UHGV virus genome: UHGV-0038737
Strand: one strand, 5' to 3'
DNA from: a virus
DNA length: 31,147 nt
Part shown: piece after piece, positions 4,181 to 30,687 of the stretch
Numbering within the stretch: the stretch's first letter is position 1
How the letters are laid out: each line of letters begins with the position of its first letter
Notes under the pieces: generated by a model
What the model was told of the DNA's origin: nothing
Database searches by the model: none
Seen by the model: only the letters and a program-made list of their open reading frames with translations
Translations under genes and position numbers: made by a program

Positions 4181-7100
4181 TCAGAACACCCCCGTTAATC
4201 GGCCAACCTGCACTCTCAGAACGTTGTTGCCATCCTTGACGCTGATTGTCTGGTTGGTCTGCTTCATGGCTCCCTCCCCAGCTGTCGAACCGTAGTTCTC
4301 AAACGTCCCGGACTTATCCAGTTTCCAGCCAACAGAGCCGGCAACATAATTGTTCGACTGGATGTAATTGCCAATTTTTGCATTGCTTATGGTCCCGTCG
4401 CCAATGACTGTATCCCTGATAATGGCCTGGCCATTCTGGATAACGAACGGCAGTGTTACAGTCCCGCCGACCATAGTAGTCACGGCGAAACGGTCTGCCA
4501 GGAAGATTACCTGTGGCTGCATGCCGGAGGGTGTATTTTGAACCCCAATACCCATCCCGGCAGCGTAATACTGCCCGTTACTGGACACCCCCACCTTGAT
4601 GTTATACATCGCGCTGAGGTTACCGTTTACATCTGCTATAGCCTGTGCGTTGACGTTTATCGCTGCACTGTTTTCGCCTGATTTAACAGTCAGAGTGTTG
4701 ATTTTTGTTGCCGAAGCCTGGGTGAAATCAGCAAGAGTTTCTGTCAGGTCCGTTGAGTTAGAGATATTGCCACCAGCTTCTGCATCCAGTGTGACCAGCG
4801 CGCGTGCGACCGCCTGGCTGGTATCGGCAATCGTAGTATCCACTCTGTCTATACTGGCACTGTTCCCGGCGTTTGTTGCTGTCTGGGAACGACGACTGAC
4901 AACCTGCGCCAGCCCATTCTGGATTATCGCAATTGCCGAATTCTTCACGCCTCCTGTCATACCGTCCATTGAAACGGAAATCTCATCGATTTTTACCGCC
5001 GCCTGCGCCAGCCCGTCAGCGTTTTCCTGTATATCTTTCGCCTGCTGCTCCAGCTCGTCGGCATGGTTTTTGATTTCGTCAGCCATGCCAGCAATTTTTT
5101 CATTGCTGTCCACTGCGCTCTCAATCAGATCTTTAAACGTAGCGGAGTCTTTGATCTCCTCCAGGATCACATCGGTGATATCGGAAACATCGATGCTGGC
5201 CTGACCTCGCACCCAGTCGGTATACCCGGACTCGTTTCCCGTTCTGTCGACCAGTTGCGCGCGATACCAGAAAATCTGCCCTGCCTTAAGACCCATCTGC
5301 TGATATTTGCGCTGCGGATAAGGCACATCGGCCAGCAGCATTGCATCATCTTCGCTACCGGTCAGGCTGTACTGAATTTCCGTCTTCAGCGTGTCTTCGG
5401 TATTCGCCGGGAATCCCCAGTTCAGCTCGATACCGAATACCACGTTTTCAGAAGCGATGAAGCCAACCGGCTTCGGTGGGTTTCCCACTTTACCCGTCAA
5501 CGTTTTCTCTTCTGAATAGCCCCACCCAGATGAAATTTCGGCGGCATTGATGGCACGCACGCGAACCAGGTAGCGTCCTGCATAAATCCCCGGAACATCG
5601 AATGACGTGGTGGAGCTGCGCGGCACATTCACCCAGTTCCCGTCATTGCGACGCCACTGTGCCTCATACGCGATAGCATTTTTCGCCTGGTCCCAGCTGA
5701 CGCGCATGGTCTCAACGCTGATATTCTGCTGAACGACAGAAAACGAACTGATCGCGATATTAGCTGGCGGGGACTGATTACCGGGCGGAATTACACTTAT
5801 TGGCCGCTGGTCGATAATGGCACCGGTATCGATACGCGCATATTTATCCGGATCGTGCAAAGCGCCAGCAATCGAATACGTTCCGTCATTATTATCCGTA
5901 ACGCTGATAACGCGATATTGCTGCGCGTAAAGCTCTTCAGACTCGACAATCCACACCGATTCCACTGCAGGTGTTTCGCTGTATGCCGTTGTCACAGTGA
6001 CGGCCCGCCCGTTTACGCTCTGTATCGTCCTGCTCTGCGATGCGCCGGACGGAAGGTTAACCATCAGACGGCTTCCGGGAGCGGCTGCCGAATCACGATC
6101 AAGCGTGATAACGCGACCGTTAACCGCACTGATGCGCCCTCCCATCACCTTTCCGGATAACAGATCATCGGCAACCGCGATAATATAACCAGGCTGTGGA
6201 ATGTTGCCGTCCAGGCCAACATCAAACGATACGATGCGATCCTTGTTATTGGTCAGAATCCCCCAGCGTCCCTTACGGTTTGCCTCCGACTGCCGGGTAC
6301 AGCCAATGGCTGTCATTTCGAGCTGGTTTGTGCCAAACCGAGCGACGAGCTCCTGTTCAAAAACCGGCTCCATCGCATCTGCGTAGGCATTACCCGGATC
6401 AGACCAGGAAACCAGCGCAGTGGTATAGCGGTTTTTAATGGTGCTGCCAGAATAGGTAAAGCGGCCGTCAACCACGTTAGCGCGGGTGTAGCTGTAATCC
6501 ACATCACGGGGCATATCTGCCAGCGCAACGATTTGATCGCCGCCCCAGTACGTCATGCCACGGAATATGGCCGCAAAATCACGCAAAACGGTATACGCAT
6601 CATTCCTCTCCTGCACATAAACGTTGCACGTATAGCGGGGTTCTGTTCCGGTACCGCCTTTACCGTCGGGAACTGGCTGATCGCAATACTGCGCAACCTG
6701 GTAAAGTGTCCATTTATCAATATTTGCCGCCGTCAGGCGGTCGCCAAGTCCGAAACGGTCGCTCACCACCAGATCGTAAAAAATCCACGCCGGATTGTCC
6801 GTCCATGCCCACTTAAACGCCCCCGTCCAGGTGCCGCTATAGGTCCGGGTTTCCGGATCGTAAGTATCCGGCACGCGGATAACGCGTCCGCGCGGTTCAC
6901 AGGAAATTTGCGGGATGGAGCCGTTAAACTGGCTTGAGTCGAATTCGATGTACAGCAGCGCGGTATTTGGATAACGCAGTTTGGCGTCAATGACCTCTGT
7001 GTAGCTCTGCAGCGTCATCGTGTCGCCAATTTTCGCGCTGTTGGCATCCGCTGTTAGCTTACGCAGGCGCACCGTCCATGTGCTGCCTGCCTGCGGTAGG

Positions 7101-25183: not shown

Positions 25184-25912
25184 TCAGGCCGCCGCATAGA
25201 GCAATTTCATCTGCCCTTTTACCTGGAATGCCGACATGCAACGCGCTTCGAAATCACGATAATCAGAGCACCCATTGGCAATGCTGGTAACGGCAATGAT
25301 CTGTCGCTCAACCAATGTCAGCGCGTCAGGTTTAAGGTGCTGATGGATTTTGTCTCCCGCAGCCAGCCGTCTTTTAACCTCTGCATATACTTCTGGTGGT
25401 AATACCGGGCCATATACCCACTTGGCACTGATCATCCCAAATAGTGCGGGGCGACGACCTGGTCGATGACGGGGCAGCCCTGACATTTTGAACATCGCAG
25501 AATAAAACGGATCGCTAAACCTCTTTTCCCATGGCTGAGATTTATCCAGAAGGAAAATAGCCTTTATTCTTTCATCGTCGATATGATGAACGGAACCCTG
25601 AATGATTGCGTCAATTTGCTCATCACACCAGATCTCAAAATCTACAGAAAGCCATCGAGCAAATCTGACCGCCAGTTTTGGGTGAAGCCATGTTCCGCCG
25701 CCACGGTCTTTGCGAGCGCGGCTGGTTTTTACATATGTGATATTCCCATATCTACTCTTTAACGCCTCGATGTAACGGACAGTCTCAGGAAGCCTAAGCC
25801 ACTGAGCCGGCTCCTTGTTGAACTTGTCAGCTGCCGCAGTCGCGTCAAACCAGCCATCGTCAGAAAAACGCATGGGATGGCCTTCGAAATCAATCGGGAT
25901 GATATTGGACAT
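25184..25912 (-). CDS. KilA-N domain protein (Bro-N/KilA-N N-terminus, P63C-like C-terminus)
   Basis: MSNIIPIDFEGHPMRFSDDGWFDATAAADKFNKEPAQWLRLPETVRYIEAL is a typical KilA-N N-terminus. The ORF track extends to 25987 and the upstream Met cannot be excluded. Confidence 0.7.
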   Translation of the reverse strand: MSNIIPIDFEGHPMRFSDDGWFDATAAADKFNKEPAQWLRLPETVRYIEALKSRYGNITYVKTSRARKDRGGGTWLHPKLAVRFARWLSVDFEIWCDEQIDAIIQGSVHHIDDERIKAIFLLDKSQPWEKRFSDPFYSAMFKMSGLPRHRPGRRPALFGMISAKWVYGPVLPPEVYAEVKRRLAAGDKIHQHLKPDALTLVERQIIAVTSIANGCSDYRDFEARCMSAFQVKGQMKLLYAAA

Positions 25913-26061
25913 CGTATTTACCTTTTTGGTGATATGAGCCAGTTCTCGCAGACATGGACAGCCCAAGAGCGGCACGATGTAAGCCACCGTCCTGTCTCTG
26001 TCTCATATCCCGAAAAGCTCTTGGTTGATATGCGCACGAGAATGCGCGGTTTACTGCGGAT

Positions 26062-26106: not shown

Positions 26107-27009
26107 TTAAGACTGGATATTCCAAATCATTGCGTTACCGTTATGATTTTCAATGATTTTTGCCAGTGGTGCTCCACCAAAAGAATGCATGTAGCTGTGA
26201 TGTATAGTCAAAACCAAATCTTGAAGTACTTGATCACTTTCAAGTTCGGTAACATTCAACCCAATTTTCTGCGCCTTATCAAAATGAATATGACGCGAGT
26301 GGGTATAGGTTGTGTGATGGTTGTTTAACTCTGAACAAACATGTGTTGCTTTTGATTCTGCCTCAGGATCATTATCAAACATGCCTGTCATAAGCCAATG
26401 CTTAACAATCTCATTTGCCCATTTGATTGCTTTCTCACACTCGCCGATGATCGTCGGGTTTAGCTTTTGAAGAATGAACTGCCACATCTGAACAGCTGCG
26501 GGATTTTGAAAAATTTCCGTCTGCGCACGATTCCATTCTTCAATGATGGCATGGGTGGAGAAACCGTTGAACTGAGGATCAATTGGGCCAATGTTGGACT
26601 GTTTACCCATGATGATTTCATTGGCACAACATGCAAGCATAGTTCCGCAGGACATTGAAATCATAGGAACAATTGCTCTGATGTTAGTTCCAAACTTCGA
26701 CCTTAAGTAATGCCCGATTGATTCCAAAGCGGCAATATCACCACCTGGAGTATGAAGTATCAAATCCAACCCTTTTGATACATCTAAACCATTGATGGCT
26801 GTCATCAACCCGTTCTTATCATCATCAGTCATCTGAGTAAGATGGCGTACTTCTGCACCACCATGCTGTAACCACCCTGAGTAATATGTGATTACATTTC
26901 TTCCAGTATGATTCGAAAGTTGAGATAAGTATTTACGGCGAACCTCATCCATAGGACTTTTATGGGCGAGAGCCGTTATCTCGCCCAGTACGTCGCTCCA
27001 ATTAGGCAT
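26107..27009 (-). CDS. ClpP-fold serine protease, SDH / S49-like family
   Basis: Motifs GLDLILHTPGGDIAALESIGHYLRSKFG, IRAIVPMISMSCGTMLACCANEIIMG and GPIDPQ are characteristic of the ClpP/crotonase-fold SDH serine proteinase family as recalled. AT-rich gene, translationally coupled to the upstream small ORF. Confidence 0.8.
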   Translation of the reverse strand: MPNWSDVLGEITALAHKSPMDEVRRKYLSQLSNHTGRNVITYYSGWLQHGGAEVRHLTQMTDDDKNGLMTAINGLDVSKGLDLILHTPGGDIAALESIGHYLRSKFGTNIRAIVPMISMSCGTMLACCANEIIMGKQSNIGPIDPQFNGFSTHAIIEEWNRAQTEIFQNPAAVQMWQFILQKLNPTIIGECEKAIKWANEIVKHWLMTGMFDNDPEAESKATHVCSELNNHHTTYTHSRHIHFDKAQKIGLNVTELESDQVLQDLVLTIHHSYMHSFGGAPLAKIIENHNGNAMIWNIQS

Positions 27010-27012
27010 AAA

Positions 27013-27213
27013 TCAGTACGTGTAAAGTTGATGACTTGTAGTTTGGTTTTGCTTCGATTGTGTAGCGGTACCTTGTGAGTACCAAACACCTGTGTTTCCA
27101 CTCGTACTAGTTTGCTGTGCCATTACACGAGAAGCGAAGTTGTTAACAGTTTCACCAGTCAACATTTCTGCCGGTTTGATATTGTAAACATCGTAGAACT
27201 CAGCTGGGGTCAT
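27013..27213 (-). CDS. Small protein (66 aa) with Gln/Ser/Thr-rich tail, first gene of the protease operon
   Basis: ORF MTPAEFYDVYNIKPAEMLTGETVNNFASRVMAQQTSTSGNTGVWYSQGTATQSKQNQTTSHQLYTY. Strong RBS AAAGGAG 8 nt upstream. Stop 3 nt before the protease ATG. Confidence 0.6.
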   Translation of the reverse strand: MTPAEFYDVYNIKPAEMLTGETVNNFASRVMAQQTSTSGNTGVWYSQGTATQSKQNQTTSHQLYTY

Positions 27214-27235
27214 AATGATAGCTCCTTTTATAGCG

Positions 27236-27296
27236 CTACATATAGTGCCTGTGCCAAGGGGGACATACTATATGTGCCATTGTTGTCATATTTAAA
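27236..27296 (-). promoter_or_regulatory. Putative promoter/operator region of the small-protein/protease operon
   Basis: Lies between an upstream terminator and the RBS. Contains repeated TGGCAC and ATATAGT-like motifs and candidate -35 (ATGACA) and -10 (TATAGT) elements. Exact promoter not resolved. Confidence 0.3.
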
Positions 27297-27302
27297 TGTG
27301 CA

Positions 27303-27324
27303 AAAAGCCTCAAAAGAGGCTTGA
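27303..27324 (-). terminator. Rho-independent terminator insulating the lysis cassette from the downstream moron
   Basis: Minus-strand RNA AAGCCUC-UUUU-GAGGCUU followed by UUUGCACAUUU. Confidence 0.5.
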
Positions 27325-27583
27325 AAAAGATGCAAAAATACTATCTATGACGTGACTATAGCTACTTACCCACAGTTTATACAAGCCAAAAATGCTAAAT
27401 TCAGATAATCCTATTCGCTGAAAAACTACACAAAAGCTACGTTCATCTTGTCATTAGATAACGTCAGTAACTTTCACTGGATCTAAGCCATTGGTGAAAA
27501 AGCTAATTGCATGATGAAGCACTGTAATGTAGCAGTTGAGGTTGTTAAATGAGAATCACCCTAACAATGTCAACGGACATTAT

Positions 27584-28099
27584 TCATTTTCGTAACTTCT
27601 CAATCTCTCGTATACCCGCCAGGTTATTGTTGCCCTTCTCAATAACAGCCAGCAAAGGTTCAATCCAGAGGACGGCCTGGCAATACGTCATTGAGCTGGC
27701 GGCAGCGGTACTATCATCGGTTGCGTTAGTGTTCCCGGTATCGGGGTGCATTGCGCTGGCACGTAAACGGTACGCGTATTTGAGCAGCCCACCAGCGACA
27801 TCAGCAGGAACAGGCAGATCACAGGTCTTTTCACGTCGGAGAATCTCCCGGTATTCGATGACAGTTTCTTCGGTGCTGGTGTCGATCAGGGAGTTTAGCC
27901 TGTTGGCATGTTCTGCAACCTGATTGAATCGATTGAAGTTGAATGCCTGGGTGGCGATCACCTGCCCCTGCATAGAGTTGTCACTTCGCAGAACGTCGTT
28001 ATCGCTCTGAAGGCGACTGGCGTTGGAGCAACTCTTAGCGAGAGCGACCGAAAGGACAGCAATAACAACAACGCCTATAAGACCCGGATTAATTTTCAT
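27584..28099 (-). CDS. Rz: Rz-like inner-membrane spanin (i-spanin)
   Basis: MKINPGLIGVVVIAVLSVALA N-terminal transmembrane segment then coiled-coil-like region. Starts 1 nt after the endolysin stop. Confidence 0.75.
   Translation of the reverse strand: MKINPGLIGVVVIAVLSVALAKSCSNASRLQSDNDVLRSDNSMQGQVIATQAFNFNRFNQVAEHANRLNSLIDTSTEETVIEYREILRREKTCDLPVPADVAGGLLKYAYRLRASAMHPDTGNTNATDDSTAAASSMTYCQAVLWIEPLLAVIEKGNNNLAGIREIEKLRK
27688..27834 (-). CDS. Rz1: Rz1-like outer-membrane lipoprotein spanin (o-spanin), embedded in Rz, GTG start
   Basis: In the +1 frame inside Rz: (M)KRPVICLFLLMSLVGCSNTRTVYVPAQCTPIPGTLTQPMIVPLPPAQ*, with lipobox LVG-C, Pro-rich mature part and GGGAG upstream. Found by hand translation; not in the ORF track. 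Confidence 0.6.
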   Translation of the reverse strand: MKRPVICLFLLMSLVGCSNTRTVYVPAQCTPIPGTLTQPMIVPLPPAQ

Positions 28100-28644
28100 T
28101 GGTCTAACCCCCAGCACGCCAGCGCGCTTTCCTGGTCCCGTCGCTCAACCTGACCATAGCAGCCATTCTTCTGGCCTTTGGTTAGACGACAATCACGGCC
28201 ACCGTCTTTAATCCACCAGCGGATTGCCTCGCATGCACCGATGCGGTCACCTGCGTTGATGCGCTTATAGAAGGTCGATGGGAAGCATTTACCGGGGCCG
28301 ATGTTATATGGGCAGAAAGAAGCGATACCCGCTTTCTGTGGTTCGGTCAGTGGTACTTTGATATTTCGGTCAACCCACGCCAGCGCCTTGTCGCGTTCAA
28401 TGGCGTTTACCTGGGCGCATTTCTCAGCTGACAGCTTCATGCCCTGTACTACTGGCTTGCCATCAACCATTGTTGCACCACGGCAAATGGTCCAGAGTCC
28501 GCCGCCGTCGCGATATGCTGTCAAGCTGTTACCCTCTTTCTCATCCAGAAACTGATCGAGAATCACGGGTGCGGAAGCCCCGGCAAGAATCAAACCAACG
28601 ACCGCTGCGCTCAATTTATTCTTCAGCTTTAGAGACATAGCCAT
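28096..28644 (-). CDS. Endolysin, T4-lysozyme-like (GH24), with N-terminal signal-anchor-release (SAR) segment
   Basis: MAMSLKLKNKLSAAVVGLILAGASAPVILDQ then DEKEGNSLTAYRDGGGLWTICRG (Glu-Asp-Thr catalytic pattern). Confidence 0.9.
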   Translation of the reverse strand: MAMSLKLKNKLSAAVVGLILAGASAPVILDQFLDEKEGNSLTAYRDGGGLWTICRGATMVDGKPVVQGMKLSAEKCAQVNAIERDKALAWVDRNIKVPLTEPQKAGIASFCPYNIGPGKCFPSTFYKRINAGDRIGACEAIRWWIKDGGRDCRLTKGQKNGCYGQVERRDQESALACWGLDQ

Positions 28645-28894
28645 TGCGCCGATCCTCCCGTTCTTTCCAGCGGAAATACCAGTTCACTGCACAGGTGATT
28701 ACCGTGCATGCGATACCGACAATAATTGCCCAGTCGCTCAGGCTTAACCCTGCAATTCTGTCGGCCAACATCCAGGACACCTCTTTTGCTGTTTTAGCTG
28801 TTTCGGCGTATGCCTTCGCTGATACACCGCAGCCGGTCAGCGTGGTGCCTGTTCCATATGAAAGTCTGCTGTAAATGGTGCTCATTCTGGTCAT
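28616..28894 (-). CDS. Holin (probable pinholin partner of the SAR endolysin) with dual-start motif
   Basis: MTRMSTIYS... (Met1-Thr-Arg-Met4) with transmembrane segment LSDWAIIVGIACTVITCAVNWYF and charged C-terminus. Strong SD GGAGGTGA. Overlaps the endolysin start. Confidence 0.65.
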   Translation of the reverse strand: MTRMSTIYSRLSYGTGTTLTGCGVSAKAYAETAKTAKEVSWMLADRIAGLSLSDWAIIVGIACTVITCAVNWYFRWKEREDRRNGYVSKAEE

Positions 28895-29329
28895 AGCCTC
28901 ACCTCCGATTCTTCGGATGGCGCTGTGTGTGTATGAAAAGGGTCAGGCTTCACGGGCTGGATTTATCAACAAAGCACGTAGCGGATGATCCCCGAGAGGC
29001 CTGAAATAGAAAAGATAGGGCGTACCGGTCAAGATGGCGTGTCGCGTTGAGCTTTCGCTGTTATGATCCTAGTCTGGATTAGTTGCGGCGCCGGCGCTTA
29101 TTATTGGTTTGCCTCATAGGTCTGCATTTCACAGCAATTGAAAGAGTATTCCTCACAGGCCTTGTGCTGCACATCCAAACGCTCTGTCCATTGCGAAAAT
29201 ATCTTGCGATAAGAAGTAATTAAATTTTGACTTTTCATTAGATAAATGAATTTCTGATTGAGGATACTTTCACTAAATGAGATTTTAATGACGAATCTGA
29301 AAGATCAAATTACCTAAAGGATAATCAAA

Positions 29330-29827
29330 GTGAACAATTTTATTCAAGCTTTAGATGTTTCGATTAAAACCCAAAATTGGTACTCAGTATTATTTATATC
29401 GCTTACGCTGCCAGACATTTTCGGGAAGATTGATGAACCAAACAAAGGATCGCAGGCAAGAACTGTTAATTGGTACAACAAGTACATGAAAGATATGTAT
29501 ACACATCATATCGGCCCCGATCGCCTAGAGCATACATTCCTAAGCGGCAACGACTTTTATGCACTTCGCTGCGCATATCTTCACGAAGGAAGTGACGATA
29601 TTAGAAATCAGAGTGCTCAAGATGTTTTAGAAAAATTTGAATTCGTCCAGCCAATAAGTAATCAAAGCCTACACTGCAACCAATTTAATCAAATGCTTCT
29701 ACTGCAGGTTGATCGATTTGGGAAAGATGTGATGTCAGCTGTTGGCTCATGGCTAAAAGATATTGAGGGTGATGTAGAAAAAACAAACAAACTCAATGAG
29801 TTATTAAAAATAAAAATAATACCATGA
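29330..29827 (+). CDS. Hypothetical 165-aa protein, antisense AT-rich moron between Q and the holin; possible HEPN-like fold
   Basis: GTG start with AAAGGA RBS. Very AT-rich relative to flanking phage DNA. Contains an R-x4-H motif (R80-CAYL-H85). Confidence 0.55.
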   Translation: MNNFIQALDVSIKTQNWYSVLFISLTLPDIFGKIDEPNKGSQARTVNWYNKYMKDMYTHHIGPDRLEHTFLSGNDFYALRCAYLHEGSDDIRNQSAQDVLEKFEFVQPISNQSLHCNQFNQMLLLQVDRFGKDVMSAVGSWLKDIEGDVEKTNKLNELLKIKIIP

Positions 29828-29892
29828 GTAAATATTATTTAGTATTGATCTCGAATTCGATGAAACTAACTTACTGAGCGCACCCTTACCTC

Positions 29893-29930
29893 TAAAAACT
29901 AAAAAGCCCAAGGCGCTAACCTCGGGCTTA
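29893..29930 (-). terminator. Late terminator (tR'-like) downstream of Q
   Basis: Minus-strand RNA AAGCCCGAGG-UUAGCG-CCUUGGGCUU followed by UUUUUAGUUUUUAG, about 70 nt after the Q stop. Confidence 0.6.
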
Positions 29931-29997
29931 AAAACTCATTTACTGCCTGTGCATACAACAATGGCACAATATCAGATTTACACGAAATGTAAGCTAT

Positions 29998-30687
29998 TTA
30001 ATTGACTTTTGCAATACCCTGCTGGGAATAAGTCGCCTTTTGTTGTGATCGTGTTCTCACAGTGCAAAGCAGAGATTCGCTATCGAGCCCCTTAAAGATG
30101 CTGCACATAACTCGCCAGTAGTCCGCGTAATTGTGGCTCCAGTTGTCCGGTTTGACACCACACATAGCAGCTAAGTCCTGTTGCTGATAAACATCACGAC
30201 CAGCCAGTTCCGCCTTCACATCCTGCGCAGCCAGCCAGATTAATGCCTTCAGGCGCTCCAGGGTTTTCCCAGCTATTTTGCGCGCCCCCATCTGGGACTT
30301 GAATTCATCCCACGCCCACTGAGTAATCAACACCTGATTATCCCAGCGCACATTCTCGCTGTAGTTCCATAACAGCCACGCCTTTTGGTGTTCTTCGAGT
30401 GACATCAGTGCGCGGCGCCACGATGAGGTGGAGTATTCAACCGGCTGCACCAGCGGAATATGCGATCCCTTAGCATGCGACTGTTTACCGGGGATTGGCG
30501 GGTTATCCAGAGTTATCATCTCGCCAGTAACCTCATCCTTCACCTTCATCTTCTTCCGCTTAAAGGTACCGGTATCGAACTGCGCGTTCTCAAGCCAGGC
30601 CATTAACTGCCCTTTCGTCGCACCACTCAGATCGGCGGTGGCCACTATCAGCTGCTGGCGCACGTATTCGAGAAATTGAGTGTTCAT
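29998..30687 (-). CDS. Q: Late-gene antiterminator Q-like protein
   Basis: 229-aa ORF in the canonical position between rusA/ylcG and the late terminator/lysis genes. Assignment is mainly positional. Confidence 0.6.
   Translation of the reverse strand: MNTQFLEYVRQQLIVATADLSGATKGQLMAWLENAQFDTGTFKRKKMKVKDEVTGEMITLDNPPIPGKQSHAKGSHIPLVQPVEYSTSSWRRALMSLEEHQKAWLLWNYSENVRWDNQVLITQWAWDEFKSQMGARKIAGKTLERLKALIWLAAQDVKAELAGRDVYQQQDLAAMCGVKPDNWSHNYADYWRVMCSIFKGLDSESLLCTVRTRSQQKATYSQQGIAKVN

Follow-up and report, generated by a model that had tools for sequence, protein, structure and literature searches.

What is served by a gene that lies within the late region of a phage and reads against it? The question is raised by one locus of the UHGV virus genome UHGV-0038737, of which a stretch of 31,147 nucleotides (nt), hereafter the window, was analysed. 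The end of the window belongs to a lambdoid prophage and covers, on the minus strand, its region of late regulation and lysis; between the antitermination gene Q and the holin gene of this prophage stands a single gene on the plus strand (29330..29827), which encodes a protein of 165 amino acids (aa). A sequence-only reading of this DNA had noticed an R-x4-H motif in the protein and had thought of the HEPN RNases of abortive infection. The explanation favoured here, to which a probability of about 0.45 is given, is that the protein is a HEPN-like RNase that acts on its own in abortive infection or exclusion and would be made in the lysogen, kept latent, activated by an incoming phage and silenced at induction by the antisense late transcription that Q drives.

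The R-x4-H Motif and Its Family

The motif RCAYLH was found at residues 80–85, just where it had been reported, and is encoded at 29567..29584 (plus strand). Its presence alone is not significant: among shuffles of the 165-aa protein, R-x4-H appeared in 14% and R-x4-6-H in 36%, which bears out the earlier caution that the motif by itself is not diagnostic. That is to say, R-x4-H carries weight because it is conserved across the family and not because it is present, and the pair R80-x4-H85 is kept in 262 of the 265 members collected, the exceptions being two changes of H to Q and one of R to K. Three family alignments of 42, 100 and 121 sequences (the last is called A3), which reach down to about 30% identity, show P28 and R80 to be invariant throughout. 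D29, W48, Y77, L84, H85 and G87 are invariant in the alignments of 42 and 100 sequences and conserved in at least 90% of the 121; C81 hardly varies in the first two and does not vary in A3; and H115 is invariant or nearly so. The residue after the arginine is Cys in most members (R-C-x3-H), and in a distant clade of about 28% identity the canonical HEPN form R-N-x3-H is found (RNAFLH, RNAMLH). The latter form was seen in five viral-contig members that were read, L080, L084 and L091 among them.

The family is large. A word-indexed search gave 137 relatives, every one of which is called hypothetical, and an exhaustive profile search gave 2,987 clusters at 50% identity with E <= 1e-3 (431 with E <= 1e-30), nearly all of them stand-alone proteins of about 170 aa. 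By tblastn, the family was found in temperate phages of Acinetobacter, Bacillus (SPbeta-like), Escherichia (ECP1), Gordonia and Arthrobacter. In E. coli the gene is rare and unevenly spread, being present in 4 of the 5,426 complete genomes, and 16 plasmid records carry it, which are mostly large replicons of 120 kilobases (kb) to 2 Mb. The sole PHROG assignment of the window protein is phrog_18591, described as "unknown function". Scans of the window protein and 121 diverse relatives with Pfam, NCBIfam and PADLOC gave no consistent match, and searches of the PDB sequences with the protein and with the family profile gave none. One relative, P0158 (328 aa), carries TPR repeats as a C-terminal fusion (TPR_1/TPR_2, E 1e-20 to 1e-22), which could be a protein-binding sensor module; it is the only clear domain fusion among the longer relatives examined, the other long ones being without domains.

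Predicted Fold and Possible Relation to HEPN

The AlphaFold2 model, built on the 100-sequence alignment, has a predicted local distance difference test score (pLDDT) of 95.2 and a predicted template modelling score (pTM) of 0.90. Its helices span residues 3–13, 17–35, 41–52, 73–86, 127–145 and 149–156, and its strands span 58–61, 66–69, 102–106, 117–119 and 122–126. D29 lies on helix 17–35, R80 to H85 lie at the C-terminal end of helix 73–86, and residues 41–69 form an insert; after the motif come a beta insert and then the long helix 127–145. In the HEPN superfamily, the Rx4-6H motif stands where helix-3 ends, with a conserved acidic residue on helix-2; inserts are known between helices 2 and 3, and Csx1 carries a beta-hairpin immediately behind the motif (PMC3710099). 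The predicted layout of secondary structure fits that description: the conserved Rx4-6H, which all but three of the collected relatives retain (262/265), would close helix-3, and the acidic or polar residue of helix-2 would be D29, invariant or conserved in at least 90% of the sequences, on the predicted helix 17–35. As a whole the predicted fold resembles HEPN weakly, its single best match being the filovirus VP30 C-terminal helical domain. Foldseek returned no match against the PDB and, against BFVD, only two uncharacterised members of the family itself. On balance, the 165-aa protein is judged to be probably, with much room left for doubt, a true catalytic member of the HEPN superfamily.

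The Gene and Its Cargo Cassette

The open reading frame (ORF) begins with GTG, which is preceded at a distance of 8 nt by the Shine-Dalgarno sequence AAAGGA (29316..29321, plus strand, by direct reading of the sequence), and an in-frame TAA at 29315–29317 excludes a longer version. The ratio of nonsynonymous to synonymous substitution rates (dN/dS) against five relatives is 0.09–0.27; the gene is real and under purifying selection. Three E. coli chromosomes carry a prophage that is 100% identical to the region, for example ECCRA-119, in which the gene is annotated as "hypothetical protein". A 45-aa ORF on the opposite strand (29101–29238) was considered as a second gene or antitoxin and was set aside: the 75%-identical cassette of Citrobacter does not preserve it as an ORF, and it is probably non-coding. 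For this reason the description of the cassette as single-gene stands.

The guanine-plus-cytosine (GC) content dips to 0.26–0.45 over 29100–29900, with 0.50–0.58 on either side. From an alignment of the window with three sibling prophages, one of Citrobacter and two of E. coli, the boundaries of a low-GC cargo cassette of about 880 base pairs (bp) can be placed at 29016..29894; in it the gene is preceded by 314 bp of non-coding DNA and followed by 67 bp. In the four-locus alignment, one conserved block runs from the end of Q to about 29895, and the other from the holin start to about 29015. What lies between these blocks differs. In the Citrobacter sibling, the slot holds a 75%-identical version of the 165-aa gene, and the 314-bp upstream region is about 75–80% conserved between the two cassettes; in E. 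coli CRE444 it holds an unrelated 171-aa gene (L002 2655–3170), and in E. coli M172-1 an unrelated 129-aa gene (L003 2533–2922), both of them on the late (minus) strand. Neither of these two genes was given an identity by Pfam or PADLOC. The same flanks (GC about 0.53) thus enclose differing inserts of deviant base composition, which is one of the marks of a moron, and the 165-aa gene is taken to be a moron-type cargo gene. The sequence-only reading had described an AT-rich island at 29100–29990 with one 165-aa gene opposite to the late operon, in a gap that serves lambdoid phages as a cargo site. All of this agrees with what was found, since the gene is on the plus strand with Q and the holin both on the minus strand, the interval spans the gene and its upstream non-coding region, and siblings with the same flanks carry unrelated genes there.

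Genomic Context of the Relatives

Seventy-nine loci came from a scan of viral contigs, and in 76 of them the neighbouring ORFs were called and clustered. No conserved partner, antitoxin or sensor gene was found among the neighbour clusters of these 76 loci; because the commonest neighbour family occurs in at most 15 of them, the gene is taken to work alone. An endolysin lies within four genes in at least 37 of the 76. Pfam and PADLOC gave no identity to neighbours at the other loci.

Three architectures can be told apart. In the first (A), which belongs to the enterobacterial lambdoids, the order is lysin(−), holin(−), gene(+), Q(−). Fifteen loci are of this type, namely 11 viral contigs, the window, Citrobacter L008, L010/L011 and E. 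coli SZQ1, and the gene is antisense between Q and the holin in all 15; left out of this count were L022, L034, L040 and L041, whose genes at the Q position (195–202 aa) have no Pfam match. The type-A loci span three unrelated Q families (PF06323, PF03589 and PF06530), and their holins and lysins also differ. In the second (B), found in Acinetobacter prophages, UmuD, UmuC and the gene(+) are followed, where the prophage ends, by lysin, holin and tail genes in convergent orientation. At one such prophage end (L015 2244–3389), the family member shares a small accessory island, flanked by the integrase and the lysis genes, with a HEPN_RES_NTD1+RES toxin-like protein, an SRAP protein and umuDC. 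In the third (C), that of the distant clade and phage ECP1, the order is lysin(+), two small genes, gene(+), HNH, terminase. The distant clade lies within L080–L092 (L080 and L084–L091 are named), and ECP1 is L005, in which the family ORF at about 5001–5444 is unannotated in GenBank.

Antisense orientation was also considered as a rule for the whole family, and was rejected: among the 76 viral loci, both neighbours are co-oriented with the gene in 31, both are opposed in 16, and 23 are mixed. Other copies of the gene adjoin integrases or recombinases, or lie in a cyanobacterial mobile element. In a Citrobacter chromosome (CP056244.1, L009), a decayed prophage has lost Q and the early genes, and an integrase now adjoins the gene; the remnant retains the holin, the lysozyme and an intact family gene, which suggests that the gene is kept after the phage dies.

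Putative Promoters and a Terminator

The 330 nt before the start codon were aligned for 14 type-A loci. This upstream DNA is largely unalignable among them, save for one footprint 35–70 nt before the start, which is shared by cassettes whose proteins are only 52–79% identical. In the window, the footprint reads as a putative promoter on the plus strand (29258..29286), with the −35 element TTGAGG at 29258–29263, a 17-nt spacer and a weak, TGn-extended −10 element GATTTT at 29281–29286; with the TGn included, this element spans 29278–29286. Over the aligned loci, the −35 element is TTGAGG, TTGATG or TTGATA, all near to consensus, the spacer is 17 nt, and the weak TG-n extended −10 element is GATTTT, GATTCT, GACTTT or AAGTCT. 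This phylogenetic footprint argues that the cassette bears its own constitutive and probably weak promoter. Two consensus-promoter hits on the plus strand were set aside, as they are badly placed relative to the start codon.

On the late strand, an intrinsic terminator directly abuts the cassette (29904..29929, minus strand), with an 11-bp stem followed by TTTAGTTTTT; it was found by the terminator scan and lies in the block common to all four sibling loci. Further towards Q, a putative late promoter, TTGCAA-17 nt-TACATT (29986..30014, minus strand), overlaps the end of Q in a conserved block, as read from the sequence; it matches 8 of 12 consensus positions and was not flagged by the promoter scanner. 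By analogy, the terminator is probably tR′, which Q would override, and it is plausible that the TTGCAA-TACATT element is pR′; these names are given because the organisation of lambdoid late genes is known. Rfam, tRNA and RNA-folding checks of the flanks gave no match and no notable structure.

Proposed Function and Alternative Explanations

HEPN superfamily members are metal-independent RNases, and in other HEPN enzymes one active site is built from two R-x4-H motifs that come together. In the mechanism that we infer, which covers the RNase activity and oligomerisation of the protein, its trigger, the defence phenotype, expression in the lysogen and antisense silencing, the gene would be transcribed in the lysogen from its own weak sigma-70 promoter. 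There, Q being absent, late-strand transcripts from pR′ would stop at the terminator before the cassette, and no transcription would oppose that of the gene. The protein would stay latent and would probably be oligomeric, like other HEPN enzymes with paired R-x4-H motifs, until a cue from an infecting phage activated it; R80 and H85, aided by D29 and possibly H115, would then cut RNA (tRNA or mRNA), and the infection would be aborted, so that the clonal population and the resident prophage would be protected. When the prophage itself is induced, the Q-modified polymerase, having started at a strong promoter, would pass the terminator and run antisense through the whole gene, and this read-through would dampen its expression and curb self-harm. 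Should this be correct, what is new is a family within a known superfamily that does a known kind of job. A bolder version, which we consider unlikely, holds that this is a widespread new HEPN family whose beta inserts sense a protein of the invading phage, and that in lambdoid phages the gene has been captured repeatedly just behind the Q terminator and against the late operon, independently with three unrelated Q families, Q antitermination acting as a protein-free off-switch.

A number of observations weigh against the favoured explanation. As regards the protein, no HEPN model of Pfam, NCBIfam or PADLOC matched it or its 121 relatives, the family profile matches no PDB sequence at E <= 10, and the residue after the arginine is Cys in most members, in contrast to the usual HEPN Asn, Asp or His. 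Since HEPN families are often mutually undetectable by sequence, the lack of a profile match lowers the chance of membership and does not exclude it. As regards transcription, the −10 element of the footprint is poor and the consensus promoter scan did not flag it, and the terminator scan gave no terminator on the plus strand, the sole hairpin being the late-strand terminator. As regards context, in about ten distant viral loci and in ECP1 the gene is on the late-gene strand, between the lysis and the terminase genes, and because it is co-oriented with the late genes there, architecture C fits lysogen-only expression poorly; moreover, no phage genes are visible around the copies in a Methylomonas chromosome and a Sulfitobacter megaplasmid. 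The HEPN idea of the sequence-only reading is left half secured. It withstood the refuting conditions set in that reading, R80 and H85 being kept in the relatives and most relatives lying in prophages. In itself the support is weak: no HEPN profile matches, Cys mostly follows the arginine, and some relatives occupy ordinary-looking chromosomal or megaplasmid contexts.

The strand of the gene in architecture C also bears on a different role, in which an R/H-dependent enzyme, HEPN-like or other, serves the phage's own lytic programme, either by cutting host RNA for takeover or, as an anti-defence factor, by destroying a cyclic-nucleotide signal; the chemistry of HEPN resembles that of ring nucleases. 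The gene of the distant clade and of ECP1 runs in the late direction, with the lysis cassette on one side and HNH/terminase on the other, and would then be transcribed lytically. The link with the lysis cassette is the strongest contextual signal, and SPbeta-like and actinobacteriophage genomes carry the family too. At the Q-holin loci, however, the gene opposes late transcription in 15 of 15 cases and has a promoter footprint of its own, the opposite of what a lytic factor needs; every phage context seen is that of a temperate phage or prophage, and an anti-defence gene would have no obvious use in the free-standing chromosomal and megaplasmid copies. A lytic role of this kind is held to be quite improbable. 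The protein could instead be a helical one without catalysis, that is, an RNA- or protein-binding regulator, a binding-type immunity or exclusion factor, or an inactive HEPN-like scaffold, with R, H and D retained for folding or binding. The missing HEPN profile match, the weak fold scores with VP30 as the match, and the Cys after the arginine would all suit it, and many HEPN families are catalytically inactive (PMC3710099). Against this, an Arg and a His at fixed spacing are near-invariant over about 3,000 clusters together with an Asp that is invariant or nearly so and a second His, which is the usual signature of an active site, and the three natural substitutions are conservative (H to Q, R to K); such a protein therefore seems unlikely, although less so than a lytic enzyme.

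HEPN proteins are also common toxins (HepT/MNT, RnlA), and the gene might encode the toxin of an unrecognised addiction or stress module that stabilises the prophage or alters host physiology, the antitoxin being a small RNA or micro-ORF in the 314-bp upstream region or else the late antisense transcript. The conservation of that region between the window and Citrobacter (about 75–80%) and the retention of the gene in the decayed prophage remnant L009 would be expected of such a module. Yet beyond close relatives the upstream region is unalignable, the promoter footprint excepted; the viral loci have no conserved neighbouring ORF, the 45-aa antisense ORF is not conserved, and nearby there is no Rfam match, tRNA or notable RNA structure. 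We regard an addiction or stress module as very doubtful, and return to the HEPN-like RNase of the lysogen in the comparisons that follow.

Comparison with Known Systems

HepS (STM14_3211; PDB 9OIJ/9OIK) of the Salmonella prophage Gifsy-1 is a solo HEPN abortive-infection tRNA nuclease of proven activity, a latent tetramer that recognises the tail-tip protein J and cleaves the anticodon loops of tRNA (PMC13043305). By analogy, it is the closest characterised counterpart of the window protein. Both families consist of a single small protein with one HEPN-type R-x4-H and no partner or antitoxin gene, and for the window family the lack of a partner or immunity gene was seen over the 76 viral loci. 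Both are accessory genes on lambdoid siphovirus prophages of Enterobacteriaceae, and each has homologues that are dispersed from Bacillus to enterobacteria. They differ in the position of the motif (100–105 in HepS, 80–85 in the window protein) and in genome position, and the activity of the window protein is a proposed one. Whereas HepS escapes self-killing by a non-triggering tail-tip variant, the suspected safeguard of the window gene is antisense late transcription. Homology of the window family to HepS (STM14_3211 / PDB 9OIJ) was not detected by any test applied. In the Gifsy-1 record of LT2, no annotated coding sequence has R100-x4-H105, and the prophages of 14028 and LT2 evidently differ at the HepS site.

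Tha, the HEPN RNase of a S. aureus prophage (phage 80alpha), and its inhibitor belong to opposing transcription units, by which the expression of the one excludes that of the other between lysogeny and lysis (PMC11087260). The switch proposed here is likened to that of Tha because opposing transcription units there make expression in lysogeny and in lysis mutually exclusive, with the difference that no inhibitor protein is involved here. Tha-1/Tha-2 and the window protein would both be prophage HEPN-type proteins expressed in the lysogen, and the Q read-through suggests the same on/off logic. Tha, in contrast, requires the inhibitor Ith from a small overlapping antisense gene, while the opposite strand of the window gene has no conserved ORF and its antisense RNA would be the leader of the late operon. 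The host phylum is also another one, Tha lies in the lysogeny module, and no sequence similarity to the window protein was detected.

The other HEPN comparisons are more distant. HepT (7AE2, 8XDJ, 5YEP) always occurs with an adjacent MNT nucleotidyltransferase antitoxin, and no MNT nucleotidyltransferase was found among the neighbour clusters, which comprise endolysins, UmuC/D, HNH, terminase and Q; moreover, the beta-strand inserts of the window family, about 50 residues in all, are absent from minimal HEPN domains, and the sequence identity between HepT and the window protein is 5–14%. Unlike Csx1/Csm6, the window protein lacks a CARF sensor domain, is not found in a CRISPR context and is of far smaller size. 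As regards position, gogA follows the same logic, being a single cargo gene opposed to the late region in the same Q-to-holin gap of Gifsy-1. The bor gene of lambda we take to be an antisense moron of the lambdoid late region as well; gogA and bor encode virulence or serum-resistance factors, and their proteins are unrelated to that of the window.

One further candidate identity was DzbB. The PADLOC model of DzbB (Dazbog) was weakly matched by 7 of the 121 family members of A3, with a best E of 0.0012, and the window protein and ten other diverse members had no match to it. Dazbog is a two-gene defence system in which DzbB, the second and so far uncharacterised protein, is found with the DUF262 protein DzbA. 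There is no conserved DUF262 neighbour in the family, and a GmrSD_N gene was found at one locus only (L014), about 4.6 kb away. The identity is held to be doubtful: the weak matches were not reproduced in the ten further members and are not supported by the gene context.

Flanking Genes and a Second Cargo-Like Stretch

On the one side of the cassette, Q (29998..30687, minus strand) is an antitermination protein of the phage-82 type (PF06323, E 2.2e-95; RefSeq annotation). On the other side, the lysis cassette begins with the holin (28616..28894, minus strand; PF16080, E 1.7e-11, and PF04971, E 1.7e-7), after which come, on the same strand, a lysozyme of the signal-arrest-release (SAR) type at 28096–28644 and an Rz-like ORF at 27584–28117. 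The left edge of the cargo slot is a late-leader segment (28895..29015, minus strand) that is conserved among the sibling loci and is kept even with a different holin (L003) or a different Q family (L035, L037 and L041). It has no Rfam match, and its RNA fold is unremarkable (z −1.05). The core of this segment, which covers about 120 bp upstream of the holin start, reads GGCTGGATTTATCAACAAAGCACGTAGCGGATGATyCCCG.

A second cargo-like stretch (26107–27550 and 25184–25987) lies between the Rz-like gene and the packaging genes, with an AT-rich gap at 27200–27550. It contains a 300-aa serine protease of the SDH/ClpP fold (PF01972, E 8e-23; phrog_11747, unknown function), at the position of which the sibling prophage L002 has an S49 peptidase. 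A KilA-N protein that adjoins the protease weakly matches the PADLOC candidate PDC-S22 (E 1e-4).

Implications for Prophage Defence

The family is large, is without annotation in the libraries searched, and is absent from PADLOC-DB v2.0.0, the sole catalogue of defence genes that was searched. The Q-holin gap of phage-82-type E. coli prophages is a slot of alternating unrelated cargo, and as such a practical place to seek defence genes. That solo HEPN nucleases carried by prophages are potent abortive-infection defences is a recent finding (HepS in 2026, Tha in 2024), and if the favoured explanation is true, a new and easily cloned single-gene defence system would be added to them. How a prophage avoids being killed by its own defence at induction is the central open question in the HepS and Tha papers. 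The antisense placement of the gene after a Q-dependent terminator offers a testable model for it, in which the lytic switch itself would end immunity, without an inhibitor protein or a mutation that escapes the trigger.

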